A DNA stretch of 64,000 nt from an uncultured Acidobacteriota bacterium (GTDB lineage Bacteria > Acidobacteriota > Thermoanaerobaculia > UBA5066 > Gp7-AA6), in NCBI GenBank assembly GCA_963765835.1, contig CAVXYF010000020.1:20731-84730 (forward strand), written 5' to 3'. Below, in pieces: positions 4,083 to 62,438 of the stretch (its first letter is position 1; every line of letters starts with the position of its first letter). Both the position numbers and the translations under genes were made by a program. The notes under the pieces are model-generated. The model worked only from the letters and a program-made list of their open reading frames with translations. It was not told the DNA's origin and ran no database searches.

Positions 4083-5065
4083 CGGATTTTACCGAACTGG
4101 TCGATCTTGCCTCCGAACGCCTGGGCGGAGCGGCAGTCTCCGCGAACGACGAGTTCTTCGCCCCCAAGGAGAACCTCGTCAAGACGGCGCCTCCGATCTT
4201 CCGGGAAGACGAGTACACCGACCGGGGCAAGTGGATGGACGGCTGGGAGACGCGGCGCCGGCGCGAGCCCGGCCACGACTGGTGCGTGGTGCGCCTCGGC
4301 CTGCCGGGCGTGATCCGCGGAATCTGCGTCGACACGGCCTTCTTCCGCGGCAACTTCCCGGAGGCCTGCTCGCTCGAGGCGGGTGATGGTCCGGACGGTC
4401 CCTGGGTCGAGGTCCTGCCGAAGTCGGCGCTGAAGGGCGATGCCGAAAACCTCTTCCCGGTCGAGAGCGGGCGCCGGACCACGCACGTGAAGCTCCACAT
4501 CTATCCGGATGGCGGCGTGGCCCGGCTGCGCGTCTACGGGCTCGTATCTCCGGAGAAGGCGTCCGTGCCGCACGCCGCGGAAATCGACCTCGCCGGGCTG
4601 GAGAACGGCGGACTCGTCGTCGCCGCGAGCGACATGTTCTTCGGCGCGAGGCACAACCTGATCCTGCCGGGCCCTCCGCTCGGCATGCACGACGGGTGGG
4701 AGACGCGGCGGCGCCGCGGGCCCGGGCACGACTGGGCTCTCCTGCGTCTGGGTCACCGCGGCGCGATCCGGCGGATCGAGGTCGACACCCGGTACTTCAA
4801 GGGGAACTCTCCGGGGAGCTGCTCGCTCGAAATCCTGGAGCAGGGTGACCCTCTCTCTCCGCAGGGGAAGTGGCGCGAAGTCCTGCCGCAGGTGCCGCTC
4901 CGGCCGGACTCCGTGCACCGGTTCGAGGCCGAGGTCCTGCCGTCGCCGGCCGCCACGCACGCGCGTTTCCACATCTACCCGGACGGGGGCGTCGCGAGGC
5001 TCCGGCTCATCGGGGAAGTCGCGGGGACAGGTCCCTTCGGGGGCCTGCACCCGCCACCGGATTAA
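4079..5065 (+). CDS. alc: Allantoicase
   Basis: Two repeats of the motif set DGWETRRRR / GHDW / VDT..F.GN / IYPDGGVARLR. The last ~15 aa are encoded by a palindromic repeat copy. Confidence 0.95.
   Translation: MTDFTELVDLASERLGGAAVSANDEFFAPKENLVKTAPPIFREDEYTDRGKWMDGWETRRRREPGHDWCVVRLGLPGVIRGICVDTAFFRGNFPEACSLEAGDGPDGPWVEVLPKSALKGDAENLFPVESGRRTTHVKLHIYPDGGVARLRVYGLVSPEKASVPHAAEIDLAGLENGGLVVAASDMFFGARHNLILPGPPLGMHDGWETRRRRGPGHDWALLRLGHRGAIRRIEVDTRYFKGNSPGSCSLEILEQGDPLSPQGKWREVLPQVPLRPDSVHRFEAEVLPSPAATHARFHIYPDGGVARLRLIGEVAGTGPFGGLHPPPD
5017..5058 (+). repeat. Dispersed palindromic repeat copy forming the 3' end of alc
   Basis: AGTCGCGGGGACAGGTCCCTTCGGGGGCCTGCACCCGCCACC; its flanks match those at 5299, 12452, 54383 and 55473. 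Confidence 0.88.
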
Positions 5066-5082
5066 ACGGTCGAGGCGTCGCC

Positions 5083-5712
5083 CTGACGGTCGCCCTCGAG
5101 GAGTTGAACGCGCTTCCCCCGACGGAGGCGCAGCGGCGATTCCTCTCCTGCTGTGGTTCGTCGGAGTGGGCGCGGCGTATGACGGAGGCGCGTCCCTTTG
5201 GAAGTGTCGAGTCGCTCGCCGAGACGGCCGACCGGACCTGGCGCGGGCTGTCGAGGCAGGACTGGCTGGAGGCGTTCCAGGCGCATCCCCCCATAGGAGT
5301 CGCGGGGACAGGTTTTAACCTGCACCCGCCGCCGAACTCAGCGGGGACAGGTTTTAACCTGCACCCGCCGCCGAACTCAGCGGGGACAGGTTTTAACCTG
5401 CACCCGCCTCCGAACTCAGCGAACTCGAACCTTGATCGGTCCGTTCACTGGGCCCGGCAGGAACAGTCCGGCACGGCGGGCGCGGACGCGGAGACGCGGG
5501 CGGGGCTCGCGCTCTTGAACCGCGAGTACGCCGAGCGGTTCGGCCACGTCTTCCTCGTCTGCGCGACCGGGAGGAGCGCGCCGGAGATGCTTGCTCTGGG
5601 GCGGCAGAGGCTCCGGAACGACCCGGCGACGGAGCTCGCGACCGCCGCGGAAGAGCAGCGTAAGATCACTCGGCTTCGGCTGGAGAAACTTCTTTCGCCG
5701 ATCGAGCGATGA
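5083..5712 (+). CDS. uraD: OHCU decarboxylase (start uncertain: CTG 5083 or TTG 5104), with an in-frame 3 x 13-aa insertion
   Basis: LNALP...FLSCCGSSEWARRM..ARPF, AFQAHPPIG, RQEQSG, Y.ERFGHVFLVCATG, EEQRKITRLRL; lies between alc and uraH. Confidence 0.9.
   Translation: MTVALEELNALPPTEAQRRFLSCCGSSEWARRMTEARPFGSVESLAETADRTWRGLSRQDWLEAFQAHPPIGVAGTGFNLHPPPNSAGTGFNLHPPPNSAGTGFNLHPPPNSANSNLDRSVHWARQEQSGTAGADAETRAGLALLNREYAERFGHVFLVCATGRSAPEMLALGRQRLRNDPATELATAAEEQRKITRLRLEKLLSPIER
5299..5418 (+). repeat. 39-bp tandem array x3 of the dispersed repeat inside uraD (encodes AGTGFNLHPPPNS x3)
   Basis: Units 5302-5340, 5341-5379 and 5380-5418 read GCGGGGACAGGTTTTAACCTGCACCCGCCGCCGAACTCA, with one mismatch in the third unit. 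Confidence 0.95.
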
Positions 5713-6044
5713 GCGCCATCACCACCCACGTCCTCGACACGTCGCGCGGGCAACCGGCCGCGGGCGTCTCGGTCACCCTCGAGTTCCTGGCCGAAGACGG
5801 GTGGAAGTGGCTCGGGGGCGGCCGGACTGACGACGACGGGCGAGTCCGGGACCTCTTCGGAGGCGATGTCCTGTTCGGGAAGTATCGCCTGACCTTCGAC
5901 ACGGGCACTTACTTCGAGTCATCCGGTACGGAAGGTTTTTTTCCGCTGGTGCAGCTCGTTTTCACGGTCCACGATCCCGAGCGGGACTATCACGTGCCCC
6001 TGCTCCTGTCGCCCTACGGCTACTCGACCTATCGCGGTTCGTGA
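5709..6044 (+). CDS. uraH: 5-hydroxyisourate hydrolase (transthyretin-like)
   Basis: N-terminal ITTHVLDTSRG and C-terminal YHVPLLLSPYGYSTYRGS. Confidence 0.96.
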   Translation: MSAITTHVLDTSRGQPAAGVSVTLEFLAEDGWKWLGGGRTDDDGRVRDLFGGDVLFGKYRLTFDTGTYFESSGTEGFFPLVQLVFTVHDPERDYHVPLLLSPYGYSTYRGS

Positions 6045-6859
6045 TGCTGGGTCGGAACAGCTACGGAAAGTCGGGAATCCGGCTCGTTCGGGTGGACCGC
6101 GCTTCCCCGGACCACGCCGTGTCCGACCTCACGGTTGCGGTCCGGCTGGAGGGCGACTTCGAGGCGGTGCACGTCGCCGGCGACAACTCCGGTCTCGTCG
6201 CGACCGACACGATGAAGAACACGGTCTACGCGCATGCGAAGGAGCTCTCCGGCCGCGAGATCGAGGACTTCGCGCTGTCGCTCTCGGACCACTTCCTCCG
6301 GGAGAACCCGTCGCTGTCGGGGTCCGAGGTGTCGATCGAGGAGCGGATCTGGGATCGCTTGAGCAGCTCCTCGTTCGAAGGGTCGCGCGAGGAACGCCGA
6401 ACCGCGCGCGCCGTCCGGTCCCGCGAAACCGCCATCCTGTGGTCGGGGCTCCGGGACCTCCTCATCCTGAAGACCGCGCACTCCGGGTTTTCGGGGTTCG
6501 CGCGGGACCGCTACACGACGCTGCCGGAGACCCGCGACCGCCTGCTGGCGACCTCGCTCACGGCGGAGTGGACGCACGCTTCCGCGGCCGGACCTTTCGT
6601 CGGGCGATGGAAGGCGGTCCGCAGCACGCTGCTCGACACCTTCGCCGGCCACGACAGCGCGTCGGTCCAGCACACGCTGTATGCGATGGGGGAGGCGGCG
6701 CTCGCGGCGCACCCCGGCATCCGGGAGATCCGTCTCACGATGCCGAACCGCCACCACCTGCTCGTGGACCTGTCCCCCTTCGGTCTGAAAAACGAGAACG
6801 AAATCTTCGTGGCCACCGCGGAGCCCTACGGACTCATCGAGGCGACGGTGACGCGGTAG
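6041..6859 (+). CDS. pucL: Cofactor-independent urate oxidase (uricase)
   Basis: NSYGKSGIRL, ATDTMKNTVY, LKTAHSGFSGF.RD.YTTLPET.DR, SVQHTLY, MPNRHH, EPYGLIEATV. Confidence 0.94.
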   Translation: MMLGRNSYGKSGIRLVRVDRASPDHAVSDLTVAVRLEGDFEAVHVAGDNSGLVATDTMKNTVYAHAKELSGREIEDFALSLSDHFLRENPSLSGSEVSIEERIWDRLSSSSFEGSREERRTARAVRSRETAILWSGLRDLLILKTAHSGFSGFARDRYTTLPETRDRLLATSLTAEWTHASAAGPFVGRWKAVRSTLLDTFAGHDSASVQHTLYAMGEAALAAHPGIREIRLTMPNRHHLLVDLSPFGLKNENEIFVATAEPYGLIEATVTR

Positions 6860-6885
6860 ATCGATACACCGGAAAGGAGACACCC

Positions 6886-7188
6886 ATGGTCAAGTATCAG
6901 ACGTCGTGCGCCAAGGGACAGCAGGGAGAGATTCTCGTCAACGGCCTGTACGTCAGCGGTACGGAACCCGCGTGGATCGAGCGCGTCATCCTCGAGGAGC
7001 TGGACGCTGCGGGAAACGCCATCGGGTCCTGGACGTTCCACGTCGACCGATATGTGGATCCCGTCGTGCAGAGCTCGCAGATGCTCGTTTCCAAGATGCC
7101 GTCCGGTAGCAACGTGAAGGGCGCGCGGGCCACCGCGTACTGGATCGAGATCGACAAGGTGTCGAAGTCCGCGATCTTGAACCTCTAG
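6886..7188 (+). CDS. Hypothetical 100-aa protein
   Basis: Strong SD (AAAGGAG) upstream of ATG 6886, 26 bp after the uricase stop. No family recognised. Confidence 0.65.
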   Translation: MVKYQTSCAKGQQGEILVNGLYVSGTEPAWIERVILEELDAAGNAIGSWTFHVDRYVDPVVQSSQMLVSKMPSGSNVKGARATAYWIEIDKVSKSAILNL

Positions 7189-7191
7189 ATC

Positions 7192-7213
7192 CCGCTCGTT
7201 CTTCTCCGAGCGG
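7192..7213. terminator. Hairpin between convergent operons
   Basis: CCGCTCG-N8-CGAGCGG; no clear U-tract on either side. Confidence 0.4.
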
Positions 7214-7227
7214 CGCACCAAAAGTTC

Positions 7228-12437: not shown

Positions 12438-12451
12438 GGCTCCGGGAGGTC

Positions 12452-12493
12452 GGCGGCGGGTGCAGGCCCCCAAAGGGACCTGTCCCCGCGACT
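12452..12493 (-). repeat. Dispersed palindromic repeat copy between preA and the Mo subunit
   Basis: Reverse complement reads AGTCGCGGGGACAGGTCCCTTTGGGGGCCTGCACCCGCCGCC, near-identical to 5017-5058. Confidence 0.88.
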
Positions 12494-12539
12494 TTCGAGA
12501 GGCGCCCACGGTTGGGCGCGGATGCTACCGCACCGGGCG

Positions 12540-13682
12540 CTATTTCGGCGGTGCGCCCTTCAGTGTCCCGCTTCCGGCCGCGGCGGGCTCCTCGGTGTCA
12601 TATCCGCCGTGGTAGTGGGCCTCGTCCGGGCGCTTGATCTTGGAGTGCGAGACGATCCGGTTGCGCCGGATGCCCCGGAAGTCGTCCAGCTTCTGCCAGC
12701 CCCGGTGCGCGTTCTTCTCCAGGAACTCCTCCATCCCGCGGAGGAGGTTCTTGATGACCGTGGGTCCGACCGCGTGATCGAGCATGGCCGCGGTGCAGAC
12801 CTGGACAGTTCCGCACCCGAGCAGAAAGTAGTTCAGGGCGTGCGGGAACTCGGAGATGCCGCCGATCCCGGAGAACTCCTTGTCCTCGAACGCGCCCGTC
12901 ATCTGCGCCATCTTCGCGAGGGAGAGCGGAAGGATGGCGGGGCCGCCGAGGCCGCCGGTCGACACCAGGCCCTCCACGTTCATCTCGAACTCGAGAGTCT
13001 CCGGATCGATCACGGGCAGCGACGTGAACGTGTTGGAGGAGGAGATGGCGTCCGCGCCGCCGAGGAAGGCCCCCCGCGCCTCGACGACGATGTCGGTCGT
13101 GGACGGCGTGAGCTTCGCCCACACCGGGATCGTCGCCACTTCCTTCACCACCTGCGTGACGACCGAGATCAGCTCGTCGTCCTTTCCGATGTTCGAGCCC
13201 ATGTCCGGCCGGTCCATGTGGGGGCAGGAGAGGTTCAGCTCGAGCGCGTCGGCGCCGTCGTCCTGGCAGGCTTTCGCGAGGGTCTGCCAGTGGCGCATCT
13301 CCTCGTCGGAGCCGGAGCCCGCCATGATCGAAGCAATGAGGATCTTTTCGGGGTGCGCCTTCTTGATCCGCGCGAGGCGGCCGATCCACCAGTCGAGCGG
13401 CTTGTCCGAGATGAGCTCCCAGTTCCACGAGGAGTGGAGGGCCGCGCCCGGCTTCTTCTTCATCGAGATGTGGCCCGACGTCGGATCCGTGCGCATGAAG
13501 TTGGTCTTGGGACCCTTCACGTTGACGACGGGGTGCACGCCGATCGTCTTGGTGACCACGCCGGCCCAGCCCGCCTCGAACGCCCGGAGGATGTTCGCCT
13601 CCGACTCCGTGGGGGGCGCCGACGAGAGAAGGAAGGGATTCTCGAACCGGATCCCGGTGAACGTGACGGATAAGTCGGACAT
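12540..13682 (-). CDS. preA: Dihydropyrimidine dehydrogenase FMN subunit lacking the C-terminal ferredoxin domain
   Basis: ENPFLLSSAPPT, WAGVVTKT, NWELISD, ELNLSCPH, VWAKLTP, GGLGG, FSGIGG, VQVCTA. No CxxCxxC in the C-terminus. Confidence 0.85.
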   Translation of the reverse strand: MSDLSVTFTGIRFENPFLLSSAPPTESEANILRAFEAGWAGVVTKTIGVHPVVNVKGPKTNFMRTDPTSGHISMKKKPGAALHSSWNWELISDKPLDWWIGRLARIKKAHPEKILIASIMAGSGSDEEMRHWQTLAKACQDDGADALELNLSCPHMDRPDMGSNIGKDDELISVVTQVVKEVATIPVWAKLTPSTTDIVVEARGAFLGGADAISSSNTFTSLPVIDPETLEFEMNVEGLVSTGGLGGPAILPLSLAKMAQMTGAFEDKEFSGIGGISEFPHALNYFLLGCGTVQVCTAAMLDHAVGPTVIKNLLRGMEEFLEKNAHRGWQKLDDFRGIRRNRIVSHSKIKRPDEAHYHGGYDTEEPAAAGSGTLKGAPPK

Positions 13683-13684
13683 GG

Positions 13685-15022: not shown

Positions 15023-16431
15023 GACCTGGGACTCCTCTTCAGGAATGAGCCGGCGCCGGCTCTTCCGGTGAACTTTCCGTTCTCGACGACCACTTTGCCG
15101 CGGGAGAGGACCGTGTCGGACACTCCCGTGACCTCCCGCCCCTCGTAAGGGTTGTAGTCCACCTTCATGTGGAGCGTCTTCGCCGACAGCGTCTGTTTCC
15201 GGTTGGGGTCGAAGACGACGAGGTCCGCGTCGGAGCCCGGTGCGATCGTGCCCTTTCGGGGGAAGAGGCCGAAGATCTTCGCGGGCGACGTGGACGTCAG
15301 CTCCACGAACCGGTTCCACGAGATCTTTCCGGTCCGGACGCCTCCGTCGTGGACGAGGCTCATCCGCGTCTCGATCCCCGGCGCGCCGTTGGGGATCTTC
15401 GAGAAGTCGTCGCGGCCCAGCTCCTTCTGCTCCTTCATGCAGAACGGGCAGTGGTCCGTCGAGATGGCCTGCAGGTCGTTGGACGCGAGGCCCCGCCAGA
15501 GGCGGTCCTGCGTCTCCTTCGGCCGAAGCGGCGGGCTCATGACGTACTTCGCGCCCTCGAAGCCGGGCTCCTCGTAGTTGTCGTAGGAGAGGAAGAGGTA
15601 CTGCGGGCAGGTCTCGGCGTAGGCGGGAAGGCCGCGATCGCGCGCCTCCGTCACCATCTCGAGGGCCTCCGCCGCGGAGAGGTGGACGATGTAGATCGGA
15701 ACGCCGGCGATCTCGGCGAGAGCGATCGCCCGGTGCGTCGCCTCGGCTTCGGCGCGCGCCGGCCGGGTGAGGGCGTGGTACTTCGGAGCCGTATTCCCCT
15801 CGGCGAGCGCGCGCTGTACCAGCACGTCGATGACGCCGCCGTTCTCGGCGTGCATGCAGATCGTGCCGCCGTTCTCCCGGGTTCGCAGGAGAGCGCGGAA
15901 GATCGACGCGTCGTCCAGCATGAAGACGCCGGGGTAGGCCATGAAGAGCTTGAAAGACGTCACGCCCTCGCGGACGAGCTCGTCCATCTCGCGTTCGACC
16001 GAGTCGTTCAGGTCCGTGACGATCATGTGGAAGCCGTAGTCGATCGCGGCCTTGCCGTCGGCCTTGGCCCTCCAGGCGTCGAGCGCGTGCCGGAGCGTCT
16101 GGCCGCGGTACTGGATCGCGAAGTCGACGACCGACGTCGTGCCGCCGTGGGCCGCGGCGATCGTGCCGGACTCGAAGTCGTCCGCGGACGTCGTGCCGCC
16201 GAAGGGCATGTCGAGGTGCGTGTGGACGTCGATGCCCCCCGGGATCACGAACTTGCCGGCGGCGTCGATCGTCCGGTCGAGGGTCTGATCCGCGTGGGTC
16301 TGATCCCCGAAGGGGGTCAGATCCACATTTGGTGCCATCACCGCCGAAATCTTCTCGTCCTCGATGAGGACGTCGCCCCGGTACAAGTCGGTCGCGGTGA
16401 CGACGGTGCCGCCGCGGATCAGGGTCTTCAA
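15019..16431 (-). CDS. hydA: Dihydropyrimidinase
   Basis: GGIDVHTHLDMPFGGT, SFKLFMAY, MHAENG, ETCPQYL, YVMSPPLR, STDHCPF, IPNG.PG.ETR; TTG start overlaps the upstream stop. Confidence 0.94.
   Translation of the reverse strand: MKTLIRGGTVVTATDLYRGDVLIEDEKISAVMAPNVDLTPFGDQTHADQTLDRTIDAAGKFVIPGGIDVHTHLDMPFGGTTSADDFESGTIAAAHGGTTSVVDFAIQYRGQTLRHALDAWRAKADGKAAIDYGFHMIVTDLNDSVEREMDELVREGVTSFKLFMAYPGVFMLDDASIFRALLRTRENGGTICMHAENGGVIDVLVQRALAEGNTAPKYHALTRPARAEAEATHRAIALAEIAGVPIYIVHLSAAEALEMVTEARDRGLPAYAETCPQYLFLSYDNYEEPGFEGAKYVMSPPLRPKETQDRLWRGLASNDLQAISTDHCPFCMKEQKELGRDDFSKIPNGAPGIETRMSLVHDGGVRTGKISWNRFVELTSTSPAKIFGLFPRKGTIAPGSDADLVVFDPNRKQTLSAKTLHMKVDYNPYEGREVTGVSDTVLSRGKVVVENGKFTGRAGAGSFLKRSPRS
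16281..16325 (-). repeat. Palindromic repeat variant inserted in frame near the hydA N-terminus
   Basis: Minus strand reads GATCTGACCCCCTTCGGGGATCAGACCCACGCGGATCAGACCC (DLTPFGDQTHADQT), sharing the core of the 62327 array. Confidence 0.75.
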
Positions 16432-17300: not shown

Positions 17301-17321
17301 CTAAGAGCCTCCAGGTCGGTC

Positions 17322-17394
17322 GGAACACGGGACACGGGACACGGGACACGACCCGGGTGCTCTTCGTGTTCCGTGTTCCCTGTCCCGTGTCCCG
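17322..17394. repeat. Inverted array of GGGACAC/GGAACAC heptamers forming an intercistronic stem-loop
   Basis: GGAACACGGGACACGGGACACGGGACACG, a spacer, then CGTGTTCCGTGTTCCCTGTCCCGTGTCCCG. Confidence 0.85.
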
Positions 17395-17396
17395 GC

Positions 17397-20727: not shown

Positions 20728-20735
20728 AAACCGGG

Positions 20736-20762
20736 AGGCGGTAGGCGGTAGGCGGTAGGCGG
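20736..20762 (+). repeat. Intergenic heptamer tandem repeat (AGGCGGT) x ~4
   Basis: AGGCGGTAGGCGGTAGGCGGTAGGCGG. Confidence 0.9.
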
Positions 20763-20784
20763 AAGGACGGGAGAGCCCGGCTCG

Positions 20785-51222: not shown

Positions 51223-51283
51223 GCGGACTCCTTTCGTTTTCGCGACTCCGCAGGGAGCAAGAAGTGAGCCACGAGACGGTGAG

Positions 51284-51727: not shown

Positions 51728-51767
51728 GGCGCGAGCTTACGCCGCCGCTCGGCGAAAACTGGGGCGG

Positions 51768-53260: not shown

Positions 53261-53280
53261 GGCGACCTCTCATGAGGAAA

Positions 53281-53307
53281 AACACGCCCGAGCTCGAAAA
53301 GGTTGCA
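53281..53307 (-). promoter_or_regulatory. Candidate ECF-type (autoregulatory) promoter
   Basis: Minus strand TGCAACC-N14-CGTGTT ends ~20 nt before ATG 53260, which has SD GAGAGG. Confidence 0.4.
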
Positions 53308-53322
53308 GGGTAAAACCGCGGG

Positions 53323-54315: not shown

Positions 54316-54356
54316 GGACCGATTCTATGGGTCGGGACGCGGCCGTAGCGCCCCTT

Positions 54357-54427
54357 GGACTGCGGCGGGTGCAGACCTTTTTGGACTGCTGCGGGTGCAG
54401 GCCCCTTCGGGACCTGTCCCCGCGACT
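54357..54427 (-). repeat. Dispersed palindromic repeat, one partial and one full copy, after the DUF4097 stop
   Basis: GGACTGCGGCGGGTGCAGACC, then TTTTT, then GGACTGCTGCGGGTGCAGGCCCCTTCGGGACCTGTCCCCGCGACT. Confidence 0.88.
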
Positions 54428-54430
54428 TGC

Positions 54431-55387
54431 TTAGAGGCCCTGGATGCGGACTCCGCCGCCGCTCGTCCGCAACCGCAGCAGCTCGCCGCCGCCTCCCATG
54501 TTTCCCTGCAGCTTCCCGCGGGAAATCGAGCCCTCCACGGTGATGGGGACGTCCGCCCTGACCGAGTTTCCCGACGCGTCGATATGCAACCCGACGGCCG
54601 GGTCGATCGAGACCTCGATTCCGCCGCCCGAAGTCTCCAGCGTTCCGCCGCGCCCGTTGCCGCGCGCGAAAGAGGCTTCGATGCCGCCGCCGGACGTGTC
54701 GGCCTCGATGCGGCCGCCCGCCTCGAAGATATGAATGCCGCCCCCGGAGCTGTGCGCGCGGATGTCGCCCGAGACGCGGTCCAGGCGCACGGAGCCTCCG
54801 CTCGTGTCCGCGTCGATCGGGCCGTCGATCTCGCGGCCCTCGATTCCGCCGCCCGAGGTCTCGACGTTCACCCGCCCCCGGATTCGCTCCAGGTCGATCC
54901 CGCCGCCCGACGTGTGTCCCTCGAGGTCGCCGGAGAGATCCTGAACGTGGATTCCGCCGCCGGAGGTTTCGAGCTTCGCCTCCGACCGCAGGGCCGCGAT
55001 CCGGATCGCCCCGCCCGACGTATCGATGTCGACCGCCGTCTGGGTGGGGACCTGGATCTCGAAGTGGACGTCTCCGCCCGAACGATTCCAGGGGAAGAGG
55101 TGCCCGTGCCGGCGCCGCGCGGTGACGGAGACCGCTCCGGCGTCCTCCCGGAAGGTGAACCGGAGCAGCTCGTCGAGCTCGCGCCTGCGGGAGGTCACGA
55201 CCAGCCGGGCCCCCGGAGCGCTCGTACCCGTGACGGTGACGCTGCCGAGGTCGGTCTGAATGGAGAACCGTCCGCCGGGATCGAGCCGAAGCGCCTTTTC
55301 CATCCGGGATTCCGCCCGGGCGCCCAGAGCCGGAAGGACGATTCCTGCGAAAAGGAGCGCGGCGCGGCCGGTGTTCGGCAGTTTCAT
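54431..55387 (-). CDS. DUF4097 family beta-strand repeat protein (exported)
   Basis: Signal peptide plus about 8 (D/E/H)TSGG.I repeats. Confidence 0.9.
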   Translation of the reverse strand: MKLPNTGRAALLFAGIVLPALGARAESRMEKALRLDPGGRFSIQTDLGSVTVTGTSAPGARLVVTSRRRELDELLRFTFREDAGAVSVTARRRHGHLFPWNRSGGDVHFEIQVPTQTAVDIDTSGGAIRIAALRSEAKLETSGGGIHVQDLSGDLEGHTSGGGIDLERIRGRVNVETSGGGIEGREIDGPIDADTSGGSVRLDRVSGDIRAHSSGGGIHIFEAGGRIEADTSGGGIEASFARGNGRGGTLETSGGGIEVSIDPAVGLHIDASGNSVRADVPITVEGSISRGKLQGNMGGGGELLRLRTSGGGVRIQGL

Positions 55388-56427
55388 GGAGACCTCCGTC
55401 TGCGGATGTCTAACGCAGGCGGGGGCCGAAGGTTCCTCCAAAGTGGCAAGTGGAGGCTTAAACACCGTCGCTGGACTGTTGCGGGTGCAGACCCCTTCGG
55501 GATCTGTCCCCGCGACTCTTCCTGGGTGGGGACGTCCGCGCCCTCAGGCTTGGTCTTCGCCCCCTTCTCCGGGGGGACAACGTGTTTCTCGATCCGCTCG
55601 GAGTAGGCCCGGGTGAACTCCGCGCCGAGCAGGACGATGAACGAGGCGTAGTAGACCCACAGGAGGATGACGATGACGGAGCCCGCCGCGCCGTACGTGG
55701 AGGAGATGGCGGCGCGGCCGAGGTAGAGGCCGATCGCCCACTTGCCGACGACGAAGAGGAGAGCGGTCACGAGCGCCCCGAGCCACACGTCGCGCCACGG
55801 AATCTTCCGGTCCGGGAGAACGCGGAAGACCAGCGCGAAGAGGACCGCGACCAGCAGGAACGAGACGATCGCGTTCAGCCACCCGAGCCACGCGGCCTGC
55901 GTCGCGAAGTAGCTCGCGACCCGGCTCTGAACCGCCTCCAGGCCGGCCGACAGGACCAGGGAGACGAGGAGGATGAACCCGATCGCGACGACGACCGCGA
56001 AGGACAGCAGGCGTTTCCGGAGGAAGTCCTTGATGAAGTGCCCGCTCTTCGGCTTGACCTCCCAGATGCGGTTCAGCGAGGCCTGGAGCTGGGCGAAGAC
56101 GGCTGTCGCGCTGACGATCAGCAGGATCGCTCCAAAAATCGCGGCCAGCCCGCTCGCCGGGTCGGTATTCGCCTTGGTCAGAACCGTCTGGACGAAGCCG
56201 GCCTGATCGCGACCCATCAGGCCTTCGAACTGCCGGACGAGGCGGCCCCGAACCGCGTCGGCGCCGAAAATCGAGCCGGCCACGGCGACTACGATGACCA
56301 GCAGGGGAGCGAGCGAGGAGACCGTGTAGAAAGCGAGCGCGGCGCTCTCCGACGTCGAGTCGTGCGCGAACCAGTTCTTGAAGGTGCGGACGATGACGTC
56401 GCGCCAGCGCTTGAACTTCACCTTCAC
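55384..56427 (-). CDS. YihY/BrkB family membrane protein; C-terminus extended through a repeat
   Basis: SAALAFY...SLAPLL, QLQASLNRIW, YGAAGS.IV.LLWVYY.S.I.LLGAEF. Confidence 0.9.
   Translation of the reverse strand: MKVKFKRWRDVIVRTFKNWFAHDSTSESAALAFYTVSSLAPLLVIVVAVAGSIFGADAVRGRLVRQFEGLMGRDQAGFVQTVLTKANTDPASGLAAIFGAILLIVSATAVFAQLQASLNRIWEVKPKSGHFIKDFLRKRLLSFAVVVAIGFILLVSLVLSAGLEAVQSRVASYFATQAAWLGWLNAIVSFLLVAVLFALVFRVLPDRKIPWRDVWLGALVTALLFVVGKWAIGLYLGRAAISSTYGAAGSVIVILLWVYYASFIVLLGAEFTRAYSERIEKHVVPPEKGAKTKPEGADVPTQEESRGQIPKGSAPATVQRRCLSLHLPLWRNLRPPPALDIRRRRSP
55409..55436 (-). promoter_or_regulatory. ECF-type promoter for the DUF4097 gene
   Basis: Minus strand GGAAC-N16-CGTTAG, followed by SD GGAGG and ATG 55387. 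Confidence 0.6.
55473..55517 (-). repeat. Dispersed palindromic repeat copy in the yihY 3' end
   Basis: GGACTGTTGCGGGTGCAGACCCCTTCGGGATCTGTCCCCGCGACT; a direct repeat of 54383-54427 with 3 mismatches. Confidence 0.9.
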
Positions 56428-56477
56428 GCGGCCCGATATCGCAAAGGATGTGCCCGGCGTCTGCTAGATTTCGAATC

Positions 56478-58430
56478 GTGGCGAGAGCGTCGGTCCGGAT
56501 TCGACCGCTCGTCGCCCTCGTGTTTCTCGTCCCCGTCCTCTCGTGCGGCCCGGCCGCGAGCCCCCGGCGCCCCGTCCCCGGCCCGCGGCCTGCCGGTCGC
56601 GCGGTCCTCATCTCGTTCGACTCGCTCGCGGGGGCGCGGCTGGAGCGCCTCCTGTCCGACCCGGCGAAGCTGCCCACCGGAGCGTTCCGCCGCCTGGCGG
56701 CCCGCGGGTTTCACGCCATCCGCTCGGTGCCTCCGACGCCGTCCCTGACCGCGGTCTCGCACATCACGCACGTCACCGGGGCGCTGCCCGAGCGCTCGGG
56801 CATCGTCTCGAATACGTTCCGCGACTTCTCCAAACCGTTTCCCGCCACGATCTCGGGCTTCGCCGCTCCCATCCGCGCCGAGACCCTCTGGCAGGCGGCC
56901 CGCCGCCAGGGCCGGCGCGTCGGCGTCATGAGCTATCCCGGGGCCGACGGCAACGGGCCCGCGCGGACCGCGGACTGGATGATGACGTGGCCCGGAGATC
57001 CGCTCGCGTGGGGTCGCATGGAGACCCTTCCGAAGACCGCGTGGGAGGCGGTGGCGTCGGGCGCGCCGGCCGGAAGTTTTTCGCCGGTCCGCCGGGCGAC
57101 CCTGGCATTTGGAAAAACCTCTCACCGCGTCCGCCTCTTCGCGCTCGACGGAACCGACGACGGGCGCGTCGACTACGACCGCGTCATCGTCGAGGAGGGG
57201 GGCAGTGAGGCGCGCATCGGCGCGTGGTTCCCGGTCGAGGTCGCGAGCCCCGAAGGGAGGACGGGAGCCTGGTGCCGGCTGATGGCGCTCGCCCCGGACC
57301 TCTCGGCCGCCGAGATCTACCTGGGGCCGCTGTCCCGGTCCACGGGCTTTCCGGAGTCCTGGGTGCGCACGCTGGACGAACGAGTCGGCTTCTGGCCGGG
57401 TGCGCCGGACTCGACGACGTTCGGCGCGGACAGCAGTCGGCCGGAGCTCTTCCTGGAGCAGGCGGACCGCCTCGTGGACTTTTTGACGCGGGCCAGCCTC
57501 CTTGCGGTCGCCCGCACCGACTGGGACCTCCTCCTCATCTACCAGCCGGAGATCGACGAGACCGGCCACGAATTTCTTCTCGTCGACCCGCGGCAGCCGC
57601 GCTTCACGCCGGAGCGCTCCGCCCGCTTTCTGGGGCTCGTGGAACAGAGCTACGCCCTCGCGGACCGCTCTCTCGACGCGATCGAAAGAGCTCTACGCCC
57701 GGACGACTCTCTCTTCGTGACGGGGGACCACGGAATGACCGCGATCTGGGCGGAGATTTCGATCATCGACATTCTCCGGGAGGCAGGTCTCGTGGCTCTC
57801 GACGCGGAACGGAAAGTCCTGGGATCGTCTCCGCTCCTGCCGGTTCCGACCAGCGGCATCGTCCACATCTACCGGAACCCGCGCGCCGCGCCGGTCACGA
57901 TCGACCGGGCCGAGCGGATCGTGCGGGACTTCCGCGTCGGCGGCGAGTCCCCCTTCGACCGGATCGTGCGCCGCGAGAACGCCGGGGACCTCGGCCTCGA
58001 GGCGCCGGAGTCCGGCGACTTGATCGTGCTCGCCCGGCCGGGCTACCAGTTCGCGAGGGAGGCGCGCGCCGACGGGGCGCTCGTGGGCGAGCGCGCCGAC
58101 TACGGCGGCCACGGGTACCGCAACGTGTACCCCGAGGTGGACGCCACTCTCTTCGCGGCGGGGCCGGGCATCCCCCACGAGACCGTGGACTCGATCGGCT
58201 CGTGGGAGATCGCGGCTCGCGTCGCGAAGGCGCTGGGCATCTCCCCGCCTCGGGACGCGTCGCGCTCGCTTGCTCGGGACCTGCTCACGCACCGGCGAGC
58301 GGCTCGCCAAGCCGGGCTCGACCGCTCGCTTGGTCCCTTCGCTGCGCTCGCGCTCCCGCGGCGCGAGGCTCCTCCCTCGATTACCTCGGGAGACTCCTCG
58401 CGCCGCGACGGGAGACTGCGAGAACCGTAG
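56478..58430 (+). CDS. Alkaline phosphatase superfamily (NPP-type) lipoprotein
   Basis: Lipobox VLSC, ISFDSL, PSLTAVSH.T..TG, DETGH, TGDHG, GGHGY. The last ~55 aa are low-complexity and repeat-derived. Confidence 0.82.
   Translation: MARASVRIRPLVALVFLVPVLSCGPAASPRRPVPGPRPAGRAVLISFDSLAGARLERLLSDPAKLPTGAFRRLAARGFHAIRSVPPTPSLTAVSHITHVTGALPERSGIVSNTFRDFSKPFPATISGFAAPIRAETLWQAARRQGRRVGVMSYPGADGNGPARTADWMMTWPGDPLAWGRMETLPKTAWEAVASGAPAGSFSPVRRATLAFGKTSHRVRLFALDGTDDGRVDYDRVIVEEGGSEARIGAWFPVEVASPEGRTGAWCRLMALAPDLSAAEIYLGPLSRSTGFPESWVRTLDERVGFWPGAPDSTTFGADSSRPELFLEQADRLVDFLTRASLLAVARTDWDLLLIYQPEIDETGHEFLLVDPRQPRFTPERSARFLGLVEQSYALADRSLDAIERALRPDDSLFVTGDHGMTAIWAEISIIDILREAGLVALDAERKVLGSSPLLPVPTSGIVHIYRNPRAAPVTIDRAERIVRDFRVGGESPFDRIVRRENAGDLGLEAPESGDLIVLARPGYQFAREARADGALVGERADYGGHGYRNVYPEVDATLFAAGPGIPHETVDSIGSWEIAARVAKALGISPPRDASRSLARDLLTHRRAARQAGLDRSLGPFAALALPRREAPPSITSGDSSRRDGRLREP
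58262..58414. repeat. Structured element with a duplicated CGCTCGCTTG and a long hairpin, in the 3' end of the phosphatase ORF
   Basis: CGCTCGCTTG at 58263 and 58323; arms TCCCGCGGCGCGAGG ... CCTCGCGCCGCGACGGGA. Confidence 0.6.
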
Positions 58431-58469
58431 CGATCGAGTTGTGGAGCTCCGGGGAGTTTCGAGCGGAGA

Positions 58470-59525
58470 CTACCCACCCAACTTCTTCAGGATCCCGTCG
58501 ATCCTCTTCTTCTGGTCGGGATCCTTCGTCATCGCCGCCGCCTTGCGATAGTTGTCGGCGGCGAGCTTCTTGTCGCCCTTCCGGTCGTACGCCTCGCCCA
58601 GGCTGTCGTACGTGTTCCAGCTGGCCGGATGGTCCTTCACGTTCTTGCGGAACATCTCGATGGCCTCGTCGGTCTTGCCCGTGCCGAGGAGCTGGTAGCC
58701 ATACGCGTTGATGTCGGCCTCCGTGGCGATCTTCATCGCCTTGTCCCGCAGGGGTCCGGCGGCCGCGGTGTCGCCCTTCGCCTCGAGGATTCCGGCCTTC
58801 GTCCGCAAGTTGTTGAAGTTCTCCTGCATCGCGATCGAGCGGTCGGCCCACGTCAGCGCCTCGTCGAGGTTGACCTTGTTGCGCATCGCGTAGGCCGCGG
58901 CGCCGTTCCACCCCTGCCAACCGAAACGGGGCAGGTCCCGCAGCTCCTTGCGCAGGCTCGCGACGACCACGGCGGGCGTGTCCACCTCGACCGTGAACGG
59001 GACCGCGAGCTTCTCCCACCGCAGGACGACGTCGACCGATTTCTCCGTGGGGTCGTCGAAGCTGTACGAGAGGCGCTCCTGGAACTCGGCCGGCCGAGGT
59101 TTCGCGGTCACGCGCAGAGCGTCTTCCTTTTCGTCGTAGCTGAAGCTGCCCCACGCCCAGCTCACGTTGGAGAAGGCGATCGTCCAGTCACCCGCCGCCG
59201 TCGGAATCATGTGGAGTCCGTACGTTCCCGCCGCGAGCGGCTTGCCGTTGACGGTTACCGGCGAGGAGAAGGAGATCGTGGTGTTCTGGTTGGCGCCCGC
59301 GCGCCACACCTCGCCGTAAGGCACGAGGTCTCCCCAGACCGTCCGCTTGTTCACCGCCGGCCGGTGGTAGATCAGCGAGATGTCGGTCAGACCGACGGTC
59401 TGGGTGAACGAGGCCTTCGGGCTCGCCTGCGGAAGCGTCAGGGGTTGTTGGGCCGAGGCGGAAGCCGCGACCAGAAGCGAGACCCCGAGGAGCAGTCCGC
59501 TCCCACGGTAGACAAAACGTCCCAT
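58470..59525 (-). CDS. DUF2911 domain protein with C-terminal TPR
   Basis: PQASP.A...QTVG.TDI...Y.RP.V..R, VPYG.VWRAGAN, then INAYGY.LL...WNTYDSLGEAY. Confidence 0.88.
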   Translation of the reverse strand: MGRFVYRGSGLLLGVSLLVAASASAQQPLTLPQASPKASFTQTVGLTDISLIYHRPAVNKRTVWGDLVPYGEVWRAGANQNTTISFSSPVTVNGKPLAAGTYGLHMIPTAAGDWTIAFSNVSWAWGSFSYDEKEDALRVTAKPRPAEFQERLSYSFDDPTEKSVDVVLRWEKLAVPFTVEVDTPAVVVASLRKELRDLPRFGWQGWNGAAAYAMRNKVNLDEALTWADRSIAMQENFNNLRTKAGILEAKGDTAAAGPLRDKAMKIATEADINAYGYQLLGTGKTDEAIEMFRKNVKDHPASWNTYDSLGEAYDRKGDKKLAADNYRKAAAMTKDPDQKKRIDGILKKLGG

Positions 59526-59640
59526 GTGTCCCTCCTGTAATGCCGGGACGGCCCGGATGTCTTTTGACCGCCGCGGCGACCTTTCCGGATTCTTACGGCG
59601 GGGGCGGGGCCGGGTTTAGGCTTCCGGGAGGCGGGCGCGC

Positions 59641-60690
59641 ATGAAAAAGCTACCGGCCCTGCTCGCGTTCCTCTTCCTCTCTCTGCCGTCGGCGGCTCGC
59701 GGACCGGCGCCCGCGGAGTCCCCCATGGCGTCGGCCGCCCGGGCGTTTCTCGCAGCGTTGCGGCCGGATCTTCGCGCGCAGGCGCTTCTGGCTTTCGGCG
59801 ACGCCGATCGAACGAACTGGAGGTACGTCCCGGGCCGGCGCCGAGGCGTCAACCTGAAGCAGATGAGCTCATCGGAGCGCGCCGCGGCTCATGCGCTGCT
59901 AAAGGCCGGGTCGAGCGCCCGCGGCTACGAGAAGGCGGCGGGCGTGATCGAGCTCGAGGGGATCCTGCGCGGCCTCGAGTCGTTCGGGTGGTTTCGGGAT
60001 CCCGAGCTCTACTGGTTCACGATTTTCGGCGAGCCTTCGGACTCCGCGCCGTGGGGATGGAGATTCGAGGGTCACCACGTTTCCCTGAACTACCTCTCGA
60101 CGCGGGGCAAGTTAGCGGTCGCGACCCCCGCCTTCCTGGGCGCGAACCCGGCTCGCGTTCCGACAGGTGCCCGCGCCGGCTGGCGGTTGCTTCCGGCCGA
60201 AGAGGATCTCGCGCGCCGGCTGCTCGCGAGCCTGGCGCCGGGAGAGCGCGCCCGCGCGCTGCTTTCGGAGAGAGCGCCGGCCGACATCCTCATGGGACCG
60301 GGCCGTCGGTCGCCTCCGGAGCCCGCGGGACTCCCGGCGTCGGAGTTGACCGCCGTTCAGCGCGAAACGCTGATCGCGCTGGTCGCGGAGTACGCCCGCA
60401 ACGCCCGTCCGGAGATCGCGGAAGCGCGCTGGAAGAGGATCGAAGCCGCCGGCGTCGGGAAGATCCGTTTTGCGTGGGCCGGAAGCGACGCGGTCGGCAG
60501 CGGTCACTACTACCGGGTCCAGGGGCCGACGTTCGTGATCGAGTACGACAACACTCAGGACCGGGCGAACCACGTGCACTCGGTCTGGCGCGACCTGCCG
60601 GCCGACGGGGGAGCCGACCTTCTGCGCCGCCACTACGAGGAGAGCCCGCATCACGCCGCGGCTTGGAGGAGCGCGTCCCCGCCGCAGTGA
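59641..60690 (+). CDS. DUF3500 family exported protein
   Basis: WGWRFEGHH.SLN, TP.FLGANP, YYRVQGP.FVIEYDNTQ, NH.HSVWRD, LLRRHY. Confidence 0.88.
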   Translation: MKKLPALLAFLFLSLPSAARGPAPAESPMASAARAFLAALRPDLRAQALLAFGDADRTNWRYVPGRRRGVNLKQMSSSERAAAHALLKAGSSARGYEKAAGVIELEGILRGLESFGWFRDPELYWFTIFGEPSDSAPWGWRFEGHHVSLNYLSTRGKLAVATPAFLGANPARVPTGARAGWRLLPAEEDLARRLLASLAPGERARALLSERAPADILMGPGRRSPPEPAGLPASELTAVQRETLIALVAEYARNARPEIAEARWKRIEAAGVGKIRFAWAGSDAVGSGHYYRVQGPTFVIEYDNTQDRANHVHSVWRDLPADGGADLLRRHYEESPHHAAAWRSASPPQ

Positions 60691-60774
60691 AGGCGGTCCT
60701 TCGCCCGCGCCCATTCGTCCGAATCGCAAAACCTGCCGCTCTCTTTCCCCGTCTTCTCCACCGAGAGGTGCGGG

Positions 60775-62310
60775 ATGCGCCGTTTGCTTTTCCCGGGTCT
60801 CTGCCTCGTTGCCGCGACCTGCTTCGGTGAGGATTCTTCGGCCGCCGTCGGTCGGATCCGTACGACGCCCTACACGCTTCAGCCCCGCGACGGATCCCGC
60901 GCCGTGACCGCCGAGCTCGGCTGGCTCACGGTTCCCGAAAATCACGCGCGCCCCTCCGGTCCGACGATCGAGCTCGCGTTCCTCCGGTTCCGCACGGCCG
61001 CGCCCCGCCCGGGCTCTCCCGTCGTGTGGCTCGCGGGAGGTCCGGGAGGATCCGGGACGCACGATGCCGAGGGCGCCATCCTTCCGCTCCTCCAGGCGAT
61101 CTCCGAAACCGCCGACGTCATCGCGCTGGATCAGCGCGGAATGGGCCGCTCGCTGCCGCGACTCGACTGTCCGGGGAACTTCGATCTGCCTCTCGACCGG
61201 CCGATGGAACGCAACTTCGTCCTCGCCGCTTTCCGCGAACGCGCCGCGGAGTGCCGCGCGTACTGGGAAAAGCGGGGGGTGGACCTCGCGTCGTACAACA
61301 CGAACGAGAGCGCCCGCGACCTCGAAGACCTGAGGCGGGCCCTCGGGGTCCCGAAGTTGAGCCTCCTCGCGGGGAGTTACGGGACGCACCTCGCGCTGGC
61401 GGCGATCCGACTTTTCGAACCGTCGATCGAAAGGGCCGTCCTCTTCGGAATCCAGGGACCCGACCACATGGAGCGCCTGCCCGGCGACTTCCAGCACGTC
61501 CTCGAGCAGATCGACCTGCTCGTCCGGCGGACTCCGCTGCTCGCCGAACGTCTGCCGAGCTTCCTCGGAGCAATCAAGCTCGTGATGGACCGGCTCGAGC
61601 GCGACCCGATCGCCGCCGAAGCCGTGGATCCGGCGACCGGCTCCCGGCGGCCCGTGAAGCTGGGGAAGTTCGACCTCCAGTGCTTCACACGCAACCTCCT
61701 CGCTTCGGGGGACCAGATCTCGCGCCTCCCCGGGATCTACCTCGCGATGCTGCAGGGCGACTTTCACGAGCTCGCGGCGAGCTCGCTGACCAGCCGGCGA
61801 AGCGCCTCGCCTCCCGCGGTGGACTTCACCATGCGCTGCTCGTCCGGCGGCTCCGCGGGGCGGCGCGAGAAGATCCGGTCCCAGTCGCCGAAGACCGTTC
61901 TCGGGGAGGTCGCGGACTTTCCGATGCCCGAAGTCTGCGACTCCTGGGGAGTTCCCGACCTGGGTCCCGCGTTCCGCGCGCCCGTATCCTCCGCTGTGCC
62001 GGTCCTCTTCGTCAGCGGAACGCTGGACGCGCACACTCCCACTTCGAATGCGAAGGAGGTTCTGGCGGGATTTGCGAACGGCCGTCACCTGATCGTGGAC
62101 GGCGGCGCGCACTGCCTGCTCGGGTTCAGCCTGCCGAAGGGCCGCAAGCTGGCGGCGAAGTTCCTGCGGGGAGACTCGGTGTCGAACGCGCGCCTCGCGA
62201 CGCCGCCGTTCGGGTTCCGGGTCCCGGGTCTCGCGCGGGACGCCGCGATCGCGACCCAGTTCAGTCGTTCGCTTCGGCCGCCGCCCGGCTACGCGGGCTC
62301 CGGGCATTGA
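60775..62310 (+). CDS. Exported alpha/beta hydrolase (TAP-like aminopeptidase)
   Basis: LAGGPGGSG, DQRGMG, nucleophile GSYGT, D..TP, H. Confidence 0.85.
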   Translation: MRRLLFPGLCLVAATCFGEDSSAAVGRIRTTPYTLQPRDGSRAVTAELGWLTVPENHARPSGPTIELAFLRFRTAAPRPGSPVVWLAGGPGGSGTHDAEGAILPLLQAISETADVIALDQRGMGRSLPRLDCPGNFDLPLDRPMERNFVLAAFRERAAECRAYWEKRGVDLASYNTNESARDLEDLRRALGVPKLSLLAGSYGTHLALAAIRLFEPSIERAVLFGIQGPDHMERLPGDFQHVLEQIDLLVRRTPLLAERLPSFLGAIKLVMDRLERDPIAAEAVDPATGSRRPVKLGKFDLQCFTRNLLASGDQISRLPGIYLAMLQGDFHELAASSLTSRRSASPPAVDFTMRCSSGGSAGRREKIRSQSPKTVLGEVADFPMPEVCDSWGVPDLGPAFRAPVSSAVPVLFVSGTLDAHTPTSNAKEVLAGFANGRHLIVDGGAHCLLGFSLPKGRKLAAKFLRGDSVSNARLATPPFGFRVPGLARDAAIATQFSRSLRPPPGYAGSGH

Positions 62311-62321
62311 GTCTGCGCCGG

Positions 62322-62438
62322 GATCCGACCCCTTCGGGATCAGACCCCGGAGATTGCTGAGCCGAGGTCAGACCCCTTCGGGATCAGACCCCGGAGATTG
62401 CTGAGCCGAGGTCAGACCCCTTCGGGATCAGACCCCGG
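62322..62438. repeat. 44-bp tandem array (~2.5 units) containing the GACCCCTTCGGGATCAGACCCC palindromic core
   Basis: Cores start at 62327, 62371 and 62415; located between convergent genes. Confidence 0.92.

Follow-up and report, generated by a model that had tools for sequence, protein, structure and literature searches.

Two apparently distinct families of palindromic repeats at gene ends and in enzyme loops of Thermoanaerobaculia genomes

Tagged repetitive extragenic palindromes (REPs) lie downstream of open reading frames (ORFs), their termini often supply the stop codon, some copies are in frame within genes, and their G·T pairing suggests transcription (PMC3733652). The CGTC-tagged REPs have no dedicated transposase, and their superfamily includes dRS3 of Neisseria as well as RPE-4 and RPE-6 of Rickettsia (Di Nocera et al., 2013, PMC3733652). 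They are defined by an unpaired CGTC (variants TGTC, CCTC), a stem of 8-9 bp from A·T pairs and a loop of 4-5 nt, followed by an unpaired three-base tail that is mostly CCA; head-to-head dimers are predominant and head-to-tail ones negligible (PMC3733652). Here we describe REP-like elements found in a stretch of 64,000 nucleotides (the window) of an uncultured Acidobacteriota bacterium of the class Thermoanaerobaculia (assembly GCA_963765835.1, contig CAVXYF010000020.1, positions 20,731 to 84,730). An initial annotation of this DNA, made from its letters, had proposed one dispersed family of palindromic repeats that colonises coding sequences at seven loci. All seven loci are present, at most a few bases from where they had been placed, but they appear to belong to two distinct families, A (at 5018, 5299 with three copies, 12452, 54357 and 55473) and B (at 16281 and 62322). 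The best explanation overall, to which we give a probability of about 0.62, is that family A is a non-autonomous REP-like family of Thermoanaerobaculia that is copied in trans or by template switching and retained via an effect on mRNA, family B being a separate family.

Family A is recognized by two conserved boxes with a variable hairpin between them. In the window, GCGGGGACAG-N4-24-CTGCACCCGC has 7 exact matches against 0.00 expected (100 dinucleotide-preserving shuffles, none with a match), at a G+C content of 64-71%. The family is present as 7 units at 5 loci per 64 kb, all five loci being oriented in sense with their genes, and a fuzzy scan of the window revealed no family A copies beyond them. 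The flanks GTCGCGGGGACAG ... CTGCACCCGC around a variable hairpin, as described earlier, can be read directly from the sequence at these five loci. The initial annotation had proposed to look for further genomic copies, and many exist. A gapped search pattern, GCGGGGACAGN{4,24}CTGCACCCGC, gave at least 99 stretches in one scan of a species-representative genome collection; a hairpin was then required, and at least 96 hairpin-bearing copies were found in 68 sequences, made up of the window itself and 67 fetched loci (fetched loci are designated below by L numbers, and proteins by P numbers). The hosts are at least 12 Thermoanaerobaculia/Acidobacteriota species from an uncultured soil group, represented by metagenome-assembled genomes (MAGs), and the copies often form head-to-tail arrays. 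Among the matches listed are eight 'SMAG' Thermoanaerobaculia MAGs, four other Acidobacteriota/Thermoanaerobaculia MAGs and one MAG labelled Actinomycetota. A 240-kb contig of this last MAG (L081, CAVRMH010000044.1) carries a typical family A copy with a AGCAGTCCC tail, an occurrence that may be due to mislabelling or mis-binning rather than to true spread beyond Acidobacteriota. By this distribution the window almost certainly derives from a Thermoanaerobaculia genome, in agreement with the NCBI names of the closest relatives of its OHCU decarboxylase and dihydropyrimidinase. Matches in other taxa, Streptomyces among them, form no hairpin and are probably fortuitous, and two matches on viral contigs have box spacings of 4 and 22 nt, outside the 8-14 nt of family A. 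In the literature searched, the sequence strings of neither family occurred in a repeat context, and no repeat families of Thermoanaerobaculia were described.

The family A unit measures approximately 45-55 bp and consists of five parts: a 5' extension, a tag, a hairpin, a loop and a tail. The optional extension, (C)TGAG[C/A]AA, often precedes the unpaired tag [A/T/C]GTC, for which positions -4 to -1 read A36/T22/C12/G3, G69, T53 and C65 in 73 first copies; GTC is conserved, and ahead of it stands A in 49%, T in 30% or C in 16% of these copies. The hairpin is formed by an outer stem of 5 G·C base pairs, an invariant GA/CA internal loop and an inner stem of 3-8 bp (7 bp in the 5+7-bp hairpin), and its terminal loop measures 2-6 nt (3 nt in the commonest form). 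At the level of sequence, the left box GCGGGGACAG is followed by an inner palindrome of 8-14 nt that exists in about 40 variants (including GCCCTGCGGGC, GTCCTGCGGAC, GTCCCACGGAC, GTTTTAAC, GCTTCAGC and ATCCCGAAGGGGT) and then by the right box CTGCACCCGC. Three kinds of tail occur, namely the major form CGCAGTCCA (C[G/A]CAGT[C/T]CA), which places CCA at +7 to +9, 6 nt beyond the stem, CACCGAACT(AA) and [A/C]TCCTTATT. The third kind (CTCCTTA...) is explained by its opposite strand, which reads ...TAAGGAG, the stop of a convergent gene only a few bases from the core. Adjacent copies are arranged head-to-tail with periods of 39-47 bp and conserved linkers of 8-16 nt. A CRISPR (clustered regularly interspaced short palindromic repeats) array was dropped, since these units abut through such linkers and not through unique spacers of ~30 bp or more, and so was a tyrosine-recombinase site (11-6-11 arms with a fixed asymmetric spacer), because the inner region varies in length (8-14 nt) and is itself palindromic.

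The hairpin itself seems to be preserved by compensatory stem changes. In a gapless alignment of 70 distinct family A copies of equal length, 99% of stem cells are paired; pair 18-26 is UA in 31, CG in 30, GC in 4 and UG in 4 copies, pair 19-25 is CG in 65 and UA in 4, and neither any of the 500 shuffles nor any slid control reaches the covariation score of the alignment. None of the 70 copies deviates in the GA/CA internal loop, which makes the two strands of the element differ. Moreover, sense-strand G·T wobbles outnumber A·C mismatches by 11 to 1 (p = 0.006), an excess that points to selection on the strand shown. Predicted folds of the window copies range from -29 to -41 kcal/mol (z -2.9 to -4.0), those of the copies at 12448-12492 and 54357 being -30.2 kcal/mol (z -2.96) and -40.9 kcal/mol (z -4.0), respectively.

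By its architecture, family A appears nearest to the CGTC type of REP. Both have a short GC-rich hairpin after an unpaired xGTC tag and an unpaired 3' tail containing CCA, both are found downstream of ORFs with in-frame intragenic copies, and neither has a known associated transposase gene. The differences are that the commonest first base of the family A tag is A and not C, that its stem of 5 + 7 bp is interrupted by an invariant 2x2 internal loop and is not one of 8-9 bp, that CCA lies 6 nt after the stem and not directly behind it, that its arrays are head-to-tail, and that its host phylum is outside the five listed for CGTC repeats. In stem, loop, tail and dimer arrangement family A thus departs from the CGTC type, and in tag and doublets from the classical, GTAG-tagged REPs. 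With the latter and with REPINs, which are served by REP-associated tyrosine transposases (RAYT, of the IS200/IS605-type Y1), it shares the form of imperfect palindromes of similar size that are lineage-wide and apparently vertically persistent, a preference for sites between unidirectional or convergent genes, termini that can give a stop, and G·T pairs. It also shares their conserved asymmetry and 5' tag, the features that a Y1 transposase reads on single-stranded DNA.

The position of family A relative to genes was determined for 80 arrays from the 68 loci. Twenty-five of them (31%) begin 2-14 nt after the same-strand stop of an ORF with high G+C at third codon positions (GC3), compared with a background of 1.7% of non-ORF positions that lie at such a distance from such a stop (binomial p ~1e-24). 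Five arrays are read through in sense, with a stop just after the element, and two in antisense; at eight others an opposite-strand ORF stops 3-15 nt beyond the core. Family A prefers positions within a few bases of a stop codon, with sense copies about three times as frequent as antisense ones, and its own ends can supply the stop codon. The proposal that the repeats colonise coding sequences therefore holds for some copies, located for the most part in C-termini or a small number of tolerant loops; this is minority behaviour, and the typical site is just past a stop codon in sense. A readthrough-encoded tag was considered and dropped, since all three classes of frame between upstream stop and element are represented (12, 9 and 3 of 24).

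Where copies are translated, this occurs in several frames and, in other host proteins, in both orientations. A peptide search for translated copies gave 15 matches, mostly OHCU decarboxylases, with a sensitivity too low to count host families. Other translated copies form C-terminal tails in small proteins, and a MnmE tRNA modification GTPase (P0126, from a metagenome of the Joint Genome Institute, JGI) contains an in-frame antisense tandem pair (DWTAAGAGPFGTCPRD x2) between its GTPase and helical domains. Among the fetched loci, opposite-strand family A copies were present in two only (L064 and L094), kilobases apart. In L064, from the MAG SMAG_U2733, inverted copies at 773-803 (-) and 3243-3273 (+) bracket priA, one lying just upstream of its start and the other overlapping its stop codon; the gene flanked in this way is thus not a transposase.

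Comparison with related genomes revealed both empty and filled sites. Synteny with the window, at ~70% identity, was seen in four fetched loci, and the DNA of relatives that are ~90% identical was reached via their OHCU decarboxylase proteins. The 3' end of the allantoicase gene is filled in the window and in L222, degenerate in L223 and occupied ~21 nt away in L075, and it is empty in the close relatives L221 and L224 and in the more distant syntenic loci L020, L074 and L080. The empty site of L221 and L224 reads ...TTTGG-C-ACGGTCGAGGCG...TGA, and the genes of L020, L074 and L080 end in ...GTCGCGTGA with no element. The window and L222 carry instead a block of 52 or 49 nt composed of GGAAGTC, the core and CACCGGATTAA, whose TAA ends the protein. 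In the window, the core occupies 5021-5054 (GCGGGGACAG-GTCCCTTCGGGGGC-CTGCACCCGC) of the block 5014-5065; the ORF terminates in VAGTGPFGGLHPPPD*, its stop now being the TAA at 5063-5065 inside the tail CACCGGATTAA.

In the case of OHCU decarboxylase, the loop after the motif AHPxIG contains 0-4 in-frame copies among 60 orthologs (50-79% identity), with no copy in at least 13 proteins and a remnant in P0019. At the DNA level, 39 nt are added per copy in relatives with 0, 1 and 2 copies. The window protein has 3 x AGTGFNLHPPPNS inserted between Pfam profile positions 67 and 68, splitting the Pfam hit, which amounts to a gap of ~38 residues relative to residues 83-88 of PDB 2Q37, directly after AHPxIG; the array cores lie at 5302-5329, 5341-5368 and 5380-5407 and have the short hairpin variant GTTTTAAC. 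Within this gene the arrays repeat every 39 nt (window and L223) or 42 nt (L020 and L080), both multiples of three, whereas noncoding arrays have periods of 40, 42, 43, 44, 45, 46 or 47, which argues that coding arrays are under frame constraint. Nesting of A in A, in a different frame, is found in five OHCU decarboxylase proteins (VAGTG-LSK-SRGQVPEGPAPATVQ-GLHPPPNS). The residues LSKS fit CTGAGCAAGTCG, which suggests by back-translation that the TGAGCAAGTC extension, including its TGA, travels with the element. In L038 a family A copy is nested in a 155-bp repeat (see below). Furthermore, a copy found upstream of lon in L032 is missing at this place in the window, and L074 has antisense copies at two gene junctions that are free of them in the window, each abutting or replacing a stop codon. 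Empty and filled sites, together with the range of 0-4 copies among relatives, indicate that family A inserts or expands: close relatives differ by gains, losses and tandem expansions, copies nest in other repeats, and one that falls in frame into a C-terminus or tolerant loop is simply translated. The initial annotation had suggested aligning the host proteins with orthologs, and close orthologs without the inserts were indeed found. Other OHCU decarboxylase orthologs carry a different insert in the same loop, ...GTDLF...(K)INLSPFS, in a long form (P0016, P0025, P0032, P0044, P0050) or a short one (P0017, P0039, P0045, P0046); back-translated, it resembles a further palindromic element (GGGACAGATCTG...ATCAATCTGTCCCC), and with this second type of insert the loop after AHPxIG seems to be a landing site for several families.

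This behaviour recalls RPE-1, a Rickettsia palindromic element (RPE), which likewise forms palindromic in-frame inserts in tolerated surface regions of housekeeping enzymes, present or absent among species. The RPE-like in-frame inserts seen in OHCU decarboxylase, allantoicase and dihydropyrimidinase are missing in homologs of solved structure and in close orthologs. RPE-1 differs from family A in that it is 100-150 bp long, has an unrelated sequence, is found in Rickettsia only and forms no tandem arrays, and in that coding copies are a minority in family A; the resemblance is one of behaviour and not of ancestry. REPs and RPEs, which had been put forward as analogues, are apt ones in this sense. 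Mycobacterial interspersed repetitive units (MIRUs) form direct tandem arrays of ~40-100-bp units that are intergenic within operons, oriented with the genes and variable in copy number, and their ends overlap stop and start codons. They are not known to be hairpin palindromes, to have a covarying stem or to show sequence similarity to family A. The behaviour of family A is thus already known and ordinary for REP-like repeats; new are the lineage, the head-to-tail arrays, the invariant internal loop and the co-existence of families that make two enzyme loops variable in copy number.

How would such an element spread and persist? A trans-acting enzyme would copy family A by reading the asymmetric hairpin and tag on one strand, as HUH/Y1 transposases read REPs; alternatively, copying could proceed by template switching at short matches to the element ends at some target sites, which is plausible for the growth of arrays and for some of the insertions. 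Transcribed in a 3' untranslated region, the hairpin might then be retained for an effect on mRNA, through either protection of the 3' end or pausing of the terminating ribosome. In E. coli, REPs shield upstream mRNA from 3' exonucleases, and REPs within ~15 nt of a stop codon reportedly stall terminating ribosomes. The sense bias, the adjacency to stop codons and the G·T excess together suggest that transcribed copies of family A are retained for such an effect.

Several points weigh against this explanation. The mRNA role is one that we infer from the sequences. The absence of a transposase, noted earlier for the window, was borne out: ~58 reading frames were scanned by Pfam, and none matched a transposase, integrase or HUH family or revealed another mobilising enzyme. 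A tblastn search with E. coli RayT was empty in ~750 kb (the window and the A loci) and in 640 kb around B, a sampling too sparse to exclude a single-copy gene; differently from RAYT systems, neither the window nor the fetched loci thus provided a RAYT. Run over the window and 219 fetched loci, the same search gave noise only, the best weak match (L037) falling in CysK-like and JAB-like ORFs. In addition, the tag of family A is [A/T/C]GTC and not GTAG, and its copies are head-to-tail, the inverted doublets of REPINs being absent. No common target sequence or convincing target-site duplication was seen in five empty/filled pairs. Covariation was counted per sequence and not per event, so that a few ancestral hairpin subtypes could explain most of it, and box conservation is inflated because the genome scan demanded both 10-mers exactly. 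Finally, the gene calls behind the array positions are our own GC3-based approximation.

One may also ask whether the hairpins are immobile cis-regulatory RNA signals of the host, selected at their sites at gene ends and recognized by a shared binding protein. The sense bias of about 3:1 and the stop-codon adjacency would fit this idea, as would the compensatory stem changes around an invariant internal loop, the excess of sense-strand G·T pairs and the presence of copies at orthologous sites across species, as in the flanks of L078/L095, L014/L063 and L038/L046/L048. However, empty and filled sites coexist among ~90% identical relatives, one gene end has received two independent insertions at positions 21 nt apart, nested copies exist, and no such role is apparent for antisense copies or for in-frame copies inside enzymes. 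There is no T-tract, and an intrinsic terminator scan flagged only one partial copy as terminator-like, with counts equal to those of shuffles. Rfam gave no family at gathering score in the window, and nothing meaningful around the A copies or the 155-bp repeat at relaxed thresholds. We thus consider immobile signals unlikely, although a regulatory function is compatible with a mobile origin followed by co-option.

A spread without any dedicated enzyme, by replication slippage or template switching between short end matches, would explain tandem arrays as well as insertion at end-like sites, but is a less probable account still. It finds support in head-to-tail arrays that vary in copy number, in one-arm partial duplications (54357-54390 and 16281-16296), in the native AHP codons GCGCACCCGCC of L075, L020, L074 and L080, which resemble the right box CTGCACCCGCC, and in the empty allantoicase site of L020 and L074, whose terminal GTCGCG recalls the element's left end. 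No such match exists at the closest empty site of the allantoicase gene (L221, L224), however, and the many dispersed unrelated sites, the intact non-palindromic ends and the invariant asymmetric loop are more typical of recognition by a protein.

Returning to a REP-like family copied in trans or by template switching, one can extend it further, in a way that we regard as doubtful. Family A would then be a portable gene-end module, with stops at its 5' TGAGCAAGTC and 3' ...CACCGAACTAA ends and a hairpin 4-7 nt past the stop, used genome-wide for mRNA 3' ends or ribosome pausing and installed by a putative enzyme that reads the GA/CA loop. If this were true, REP-type repeats would involve a class of transposase or a host factor with which they have not been connected so far, and the same machinery would turn particular enzyme loops hypervariable. 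Irrespective of this extension, a tagged REP-like family arranged head-to-tail and devoid of GTAG bears on what mobilises RAYT-less repeats, an open question in the REP literature.

The loci at 16281 and 62322 share a CAGACCCC-TTCG-GGATCAGACCC core, as had been noted, for which fuzzy matching found 4 matches at up to 3 mismatches in the window against 0 expected, one of the four being the hairpin of the 55473 copy. That all seven loci nevertheless form one family, with these two as divergent members, is very unlikely in our judgement. The 55473 hairpin and the 62322 core do differ at only 2 of 23 positions, and both types are GC-rich hairpins with TTCG/GAA loops, carried by the same genomes at the ends of genes and within loops of enzymes. 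Yet this likeness carries little weight, as the inner hairpin is the most variable part of family A. The loci at 16281 and 62322 do not have the GCGGGGACAG and CTGCACCCGC boxes that the other five share, nor the NGTC tag or the GA/CA internal loop that are (near-)invariant in A; they belong instead to a separate GGGGTCAGACCCC-loop-GGGGTCAGACCCC family. Its core is a pair of 13-nt palindromes GGGGTCAGACCCC, 2-6 nt apart, preceded by a motif of its own, (G)AACTGCT or AAAGGCT, to which GATTGCTG of the window unit is similar. The core is abundant in metagenome contigs, a scan of which with the pattern TCAGACCCC-N2-6-GGGRTCAGACCC gave at least 120 stretches with at least 136 copies, and among the 120 matches listed there was no family A copy and no RayT homolog.

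Family B behaves like A and yet is distinct from it, occupying a hypervariable loop of dihydropyrimidinase in both orientations. On the gene strand, the hairpin at 16297-16323 is GATCTGACCCCCTTCGGGGATCAGACC, accompanied by a partial duplication of 15 bp (16281-16296), and the N-terminal loop of the enzyme carries DLTPFGDQTHADQT in frame, an insertion of 10-12 residues relative to PDB 1YNY. Among 120 orthologs (87-93% identity), a form of 458 residues (~90% identity) has no insert (ATSFEGVNADRTID); others contain DLTPFGDQT or its reverse complement read as GLIPEGGQIP, and nested inserts also occur (DLTRGLIPEGGQIPSSLD). The corresponding DNA is GATCTGACCCCCTTCGGGGATCAGACC in the window and L228, its reverse complement in L227 and neither of them in L226; L228 also has an intergenic family B copy. 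The other family B locus of the window, at 62313-62438, begins close behind the stop (62310) of an alpha/beta hydrolase gene, between convergent genes, and is missing from the syntenic locus L028.

Hardly credible, finally, is the idea that the peptide AGTGPxxLHPPPNS is itself the module, selected as a linker or tag with the DNA likeness as a by-product, since, although OHCU decarboxylase arrays are in frame in every carrying ortholog and the allantoicase C-terminus uses the same frame in the window, L222 and L075, the majority of copies do not code for protein and form arrays whose periods are not divisible by three, at least four frames or orientations are translated (VAGTG..., SRGQ..., WTAAGAG..., DCGGC...), close orthologs without any copy are common, and conservation lies at the nucleotide level, including third positions and hairpin symmetry.

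The repeats of both families in the window are collected in Table 1. Translation of the copies in allantoicase, OHCU decarboxylase, dihydropyrimidinase and YihY/BrkB, as proposed previously, was confirmed by reading frame. The copy at 12448-12492 is noncoding; a DHO_dh-like gene with its stop at 12540 lies on one side of it and the start of a xanthine-dehydrogenase-type molybdenum (Mo) subunit on the other, both genes having the same orientation as the copy; the N-terminal motif of this subunit indicates that it probably starts at the GTG at ~12437. The copy at 54357-54426 begins 4 nt after the TAA (54431-54433) of a DUF4097 gene, and its core is followed by a 26-bp partial duplication of right box and tail at 54357-54390. 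The element at 55472-55516 has the hairpin variant ATCCCGAAGGGGT and the tail AACAGTCCA; the YihY/BrkB ORF reads through it (SRGQIPKGSAPATVQ) in a frame that differs from that of the allantoicase copy, the Pfam domain ending before it at residue 278 of 347.

Table 1. Positions of family A and family B repeats in the window.
Feature	Position	Strand	Basis
Family A copy, last 17 codons of allantoicase	5014-5065	+	Sequence and translation
Family A array, 3 x 39 bp, in frame inside OHCU decarboxylase	5299-5421	+	Tandem Repeats Finder (TRF), 98% matches
Family A copy, noncoding spacer	12448-12492, core 12456-12489	-	Sequence, fold
Family A copy with partial duplication, after DUF4097 gene	54357-54426, core 54391-54423	-	Sequence, fold
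Family A copy, C-terminal tail of YihY/BrkB	55472-55516, core 55481-55513	-	Sequence, reading frame
Family B-type hairpin in dihydropyrimidinase	16281-16323, hairpin 16297-16323	-	Sequence, structure alignment
Family B array, 2.9 x 44 bp, unit GGTCAGACCCCTTCGGGATCAGACCCCGGAGATTGCTGAGCCGA	62313-62438	+	TRF, Pfam-named neighbours

Reading frames were chosen by a GC3 filter and named by Pfam, and by the gene content so obtained the window is core chromosome. It includes genes of purine catabolism (amidohydrolase, allantoicase, OHCU decarboxylase, HIUase, uricase and xanthine-dehydrogenase-type subunits) and of pyrimidine degradation (DHO_dh-like protein, aminotransferase, dihydropyrimidinase, CN_hydrolase and aldehyde dehydrogenase), together with Suf proteins, glycogen synthesis, Lon and others; a search of the window for tRNA and tmRNA found none. 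In the region 5066-5130, a canonical start codon for the full-length OHCU decarboxylase is missing at the position where its orthologs start (M/V-S-x-x-L-x-x-LNALP), and the recorded protein (P0001, 177 aa) begins at a downstream ATG, losing the conserved LNALP...CCGSSEWARR. Either a TTG (the L of EELNAL) is used as start, or the insertion at the end of the allantoicase gene has disturbed the start region.

A third repeat family of ~155 bp is represented at 58258-58412 (+) by two long hairpins (fold -90.8 kcal/mol, z -2.15). Its copies in L091, L057, L041, L038, L023, L065, L048 and L046 are 72-95% identical, and in the window it forms the C-terminal tail of a phosphodiesterase-like ORF (56448-58430) of 660 residues, in which the Pfam domain extends to residue 557. 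Thermoanaerobaculia genomes thus contain at least three co-existing families of structured repeats. Such families affect gene calling, MAG assembly and ortholog comparisons; in the case of gene calling, frames run on through elements in allantoicase, YihY and the phosphodiesterase-like ORF ending at 58430. They also provide a natural experiment in loop tolerance, with near-identical OHCU decarboxylases and dihydropyrimidinases that carry 0-4 or nested copies in either orientation. Note also that the window contains two intergenic heptamer arrays, CGGGACA x4.3 at 17321-17350, which resembles the GGGGACAG left box of family A, and CGGTAGG x5.0 at 20732-20766, as well as a 30-bp tandem duplication at 681-744 (2.1 copies, 97% matches).

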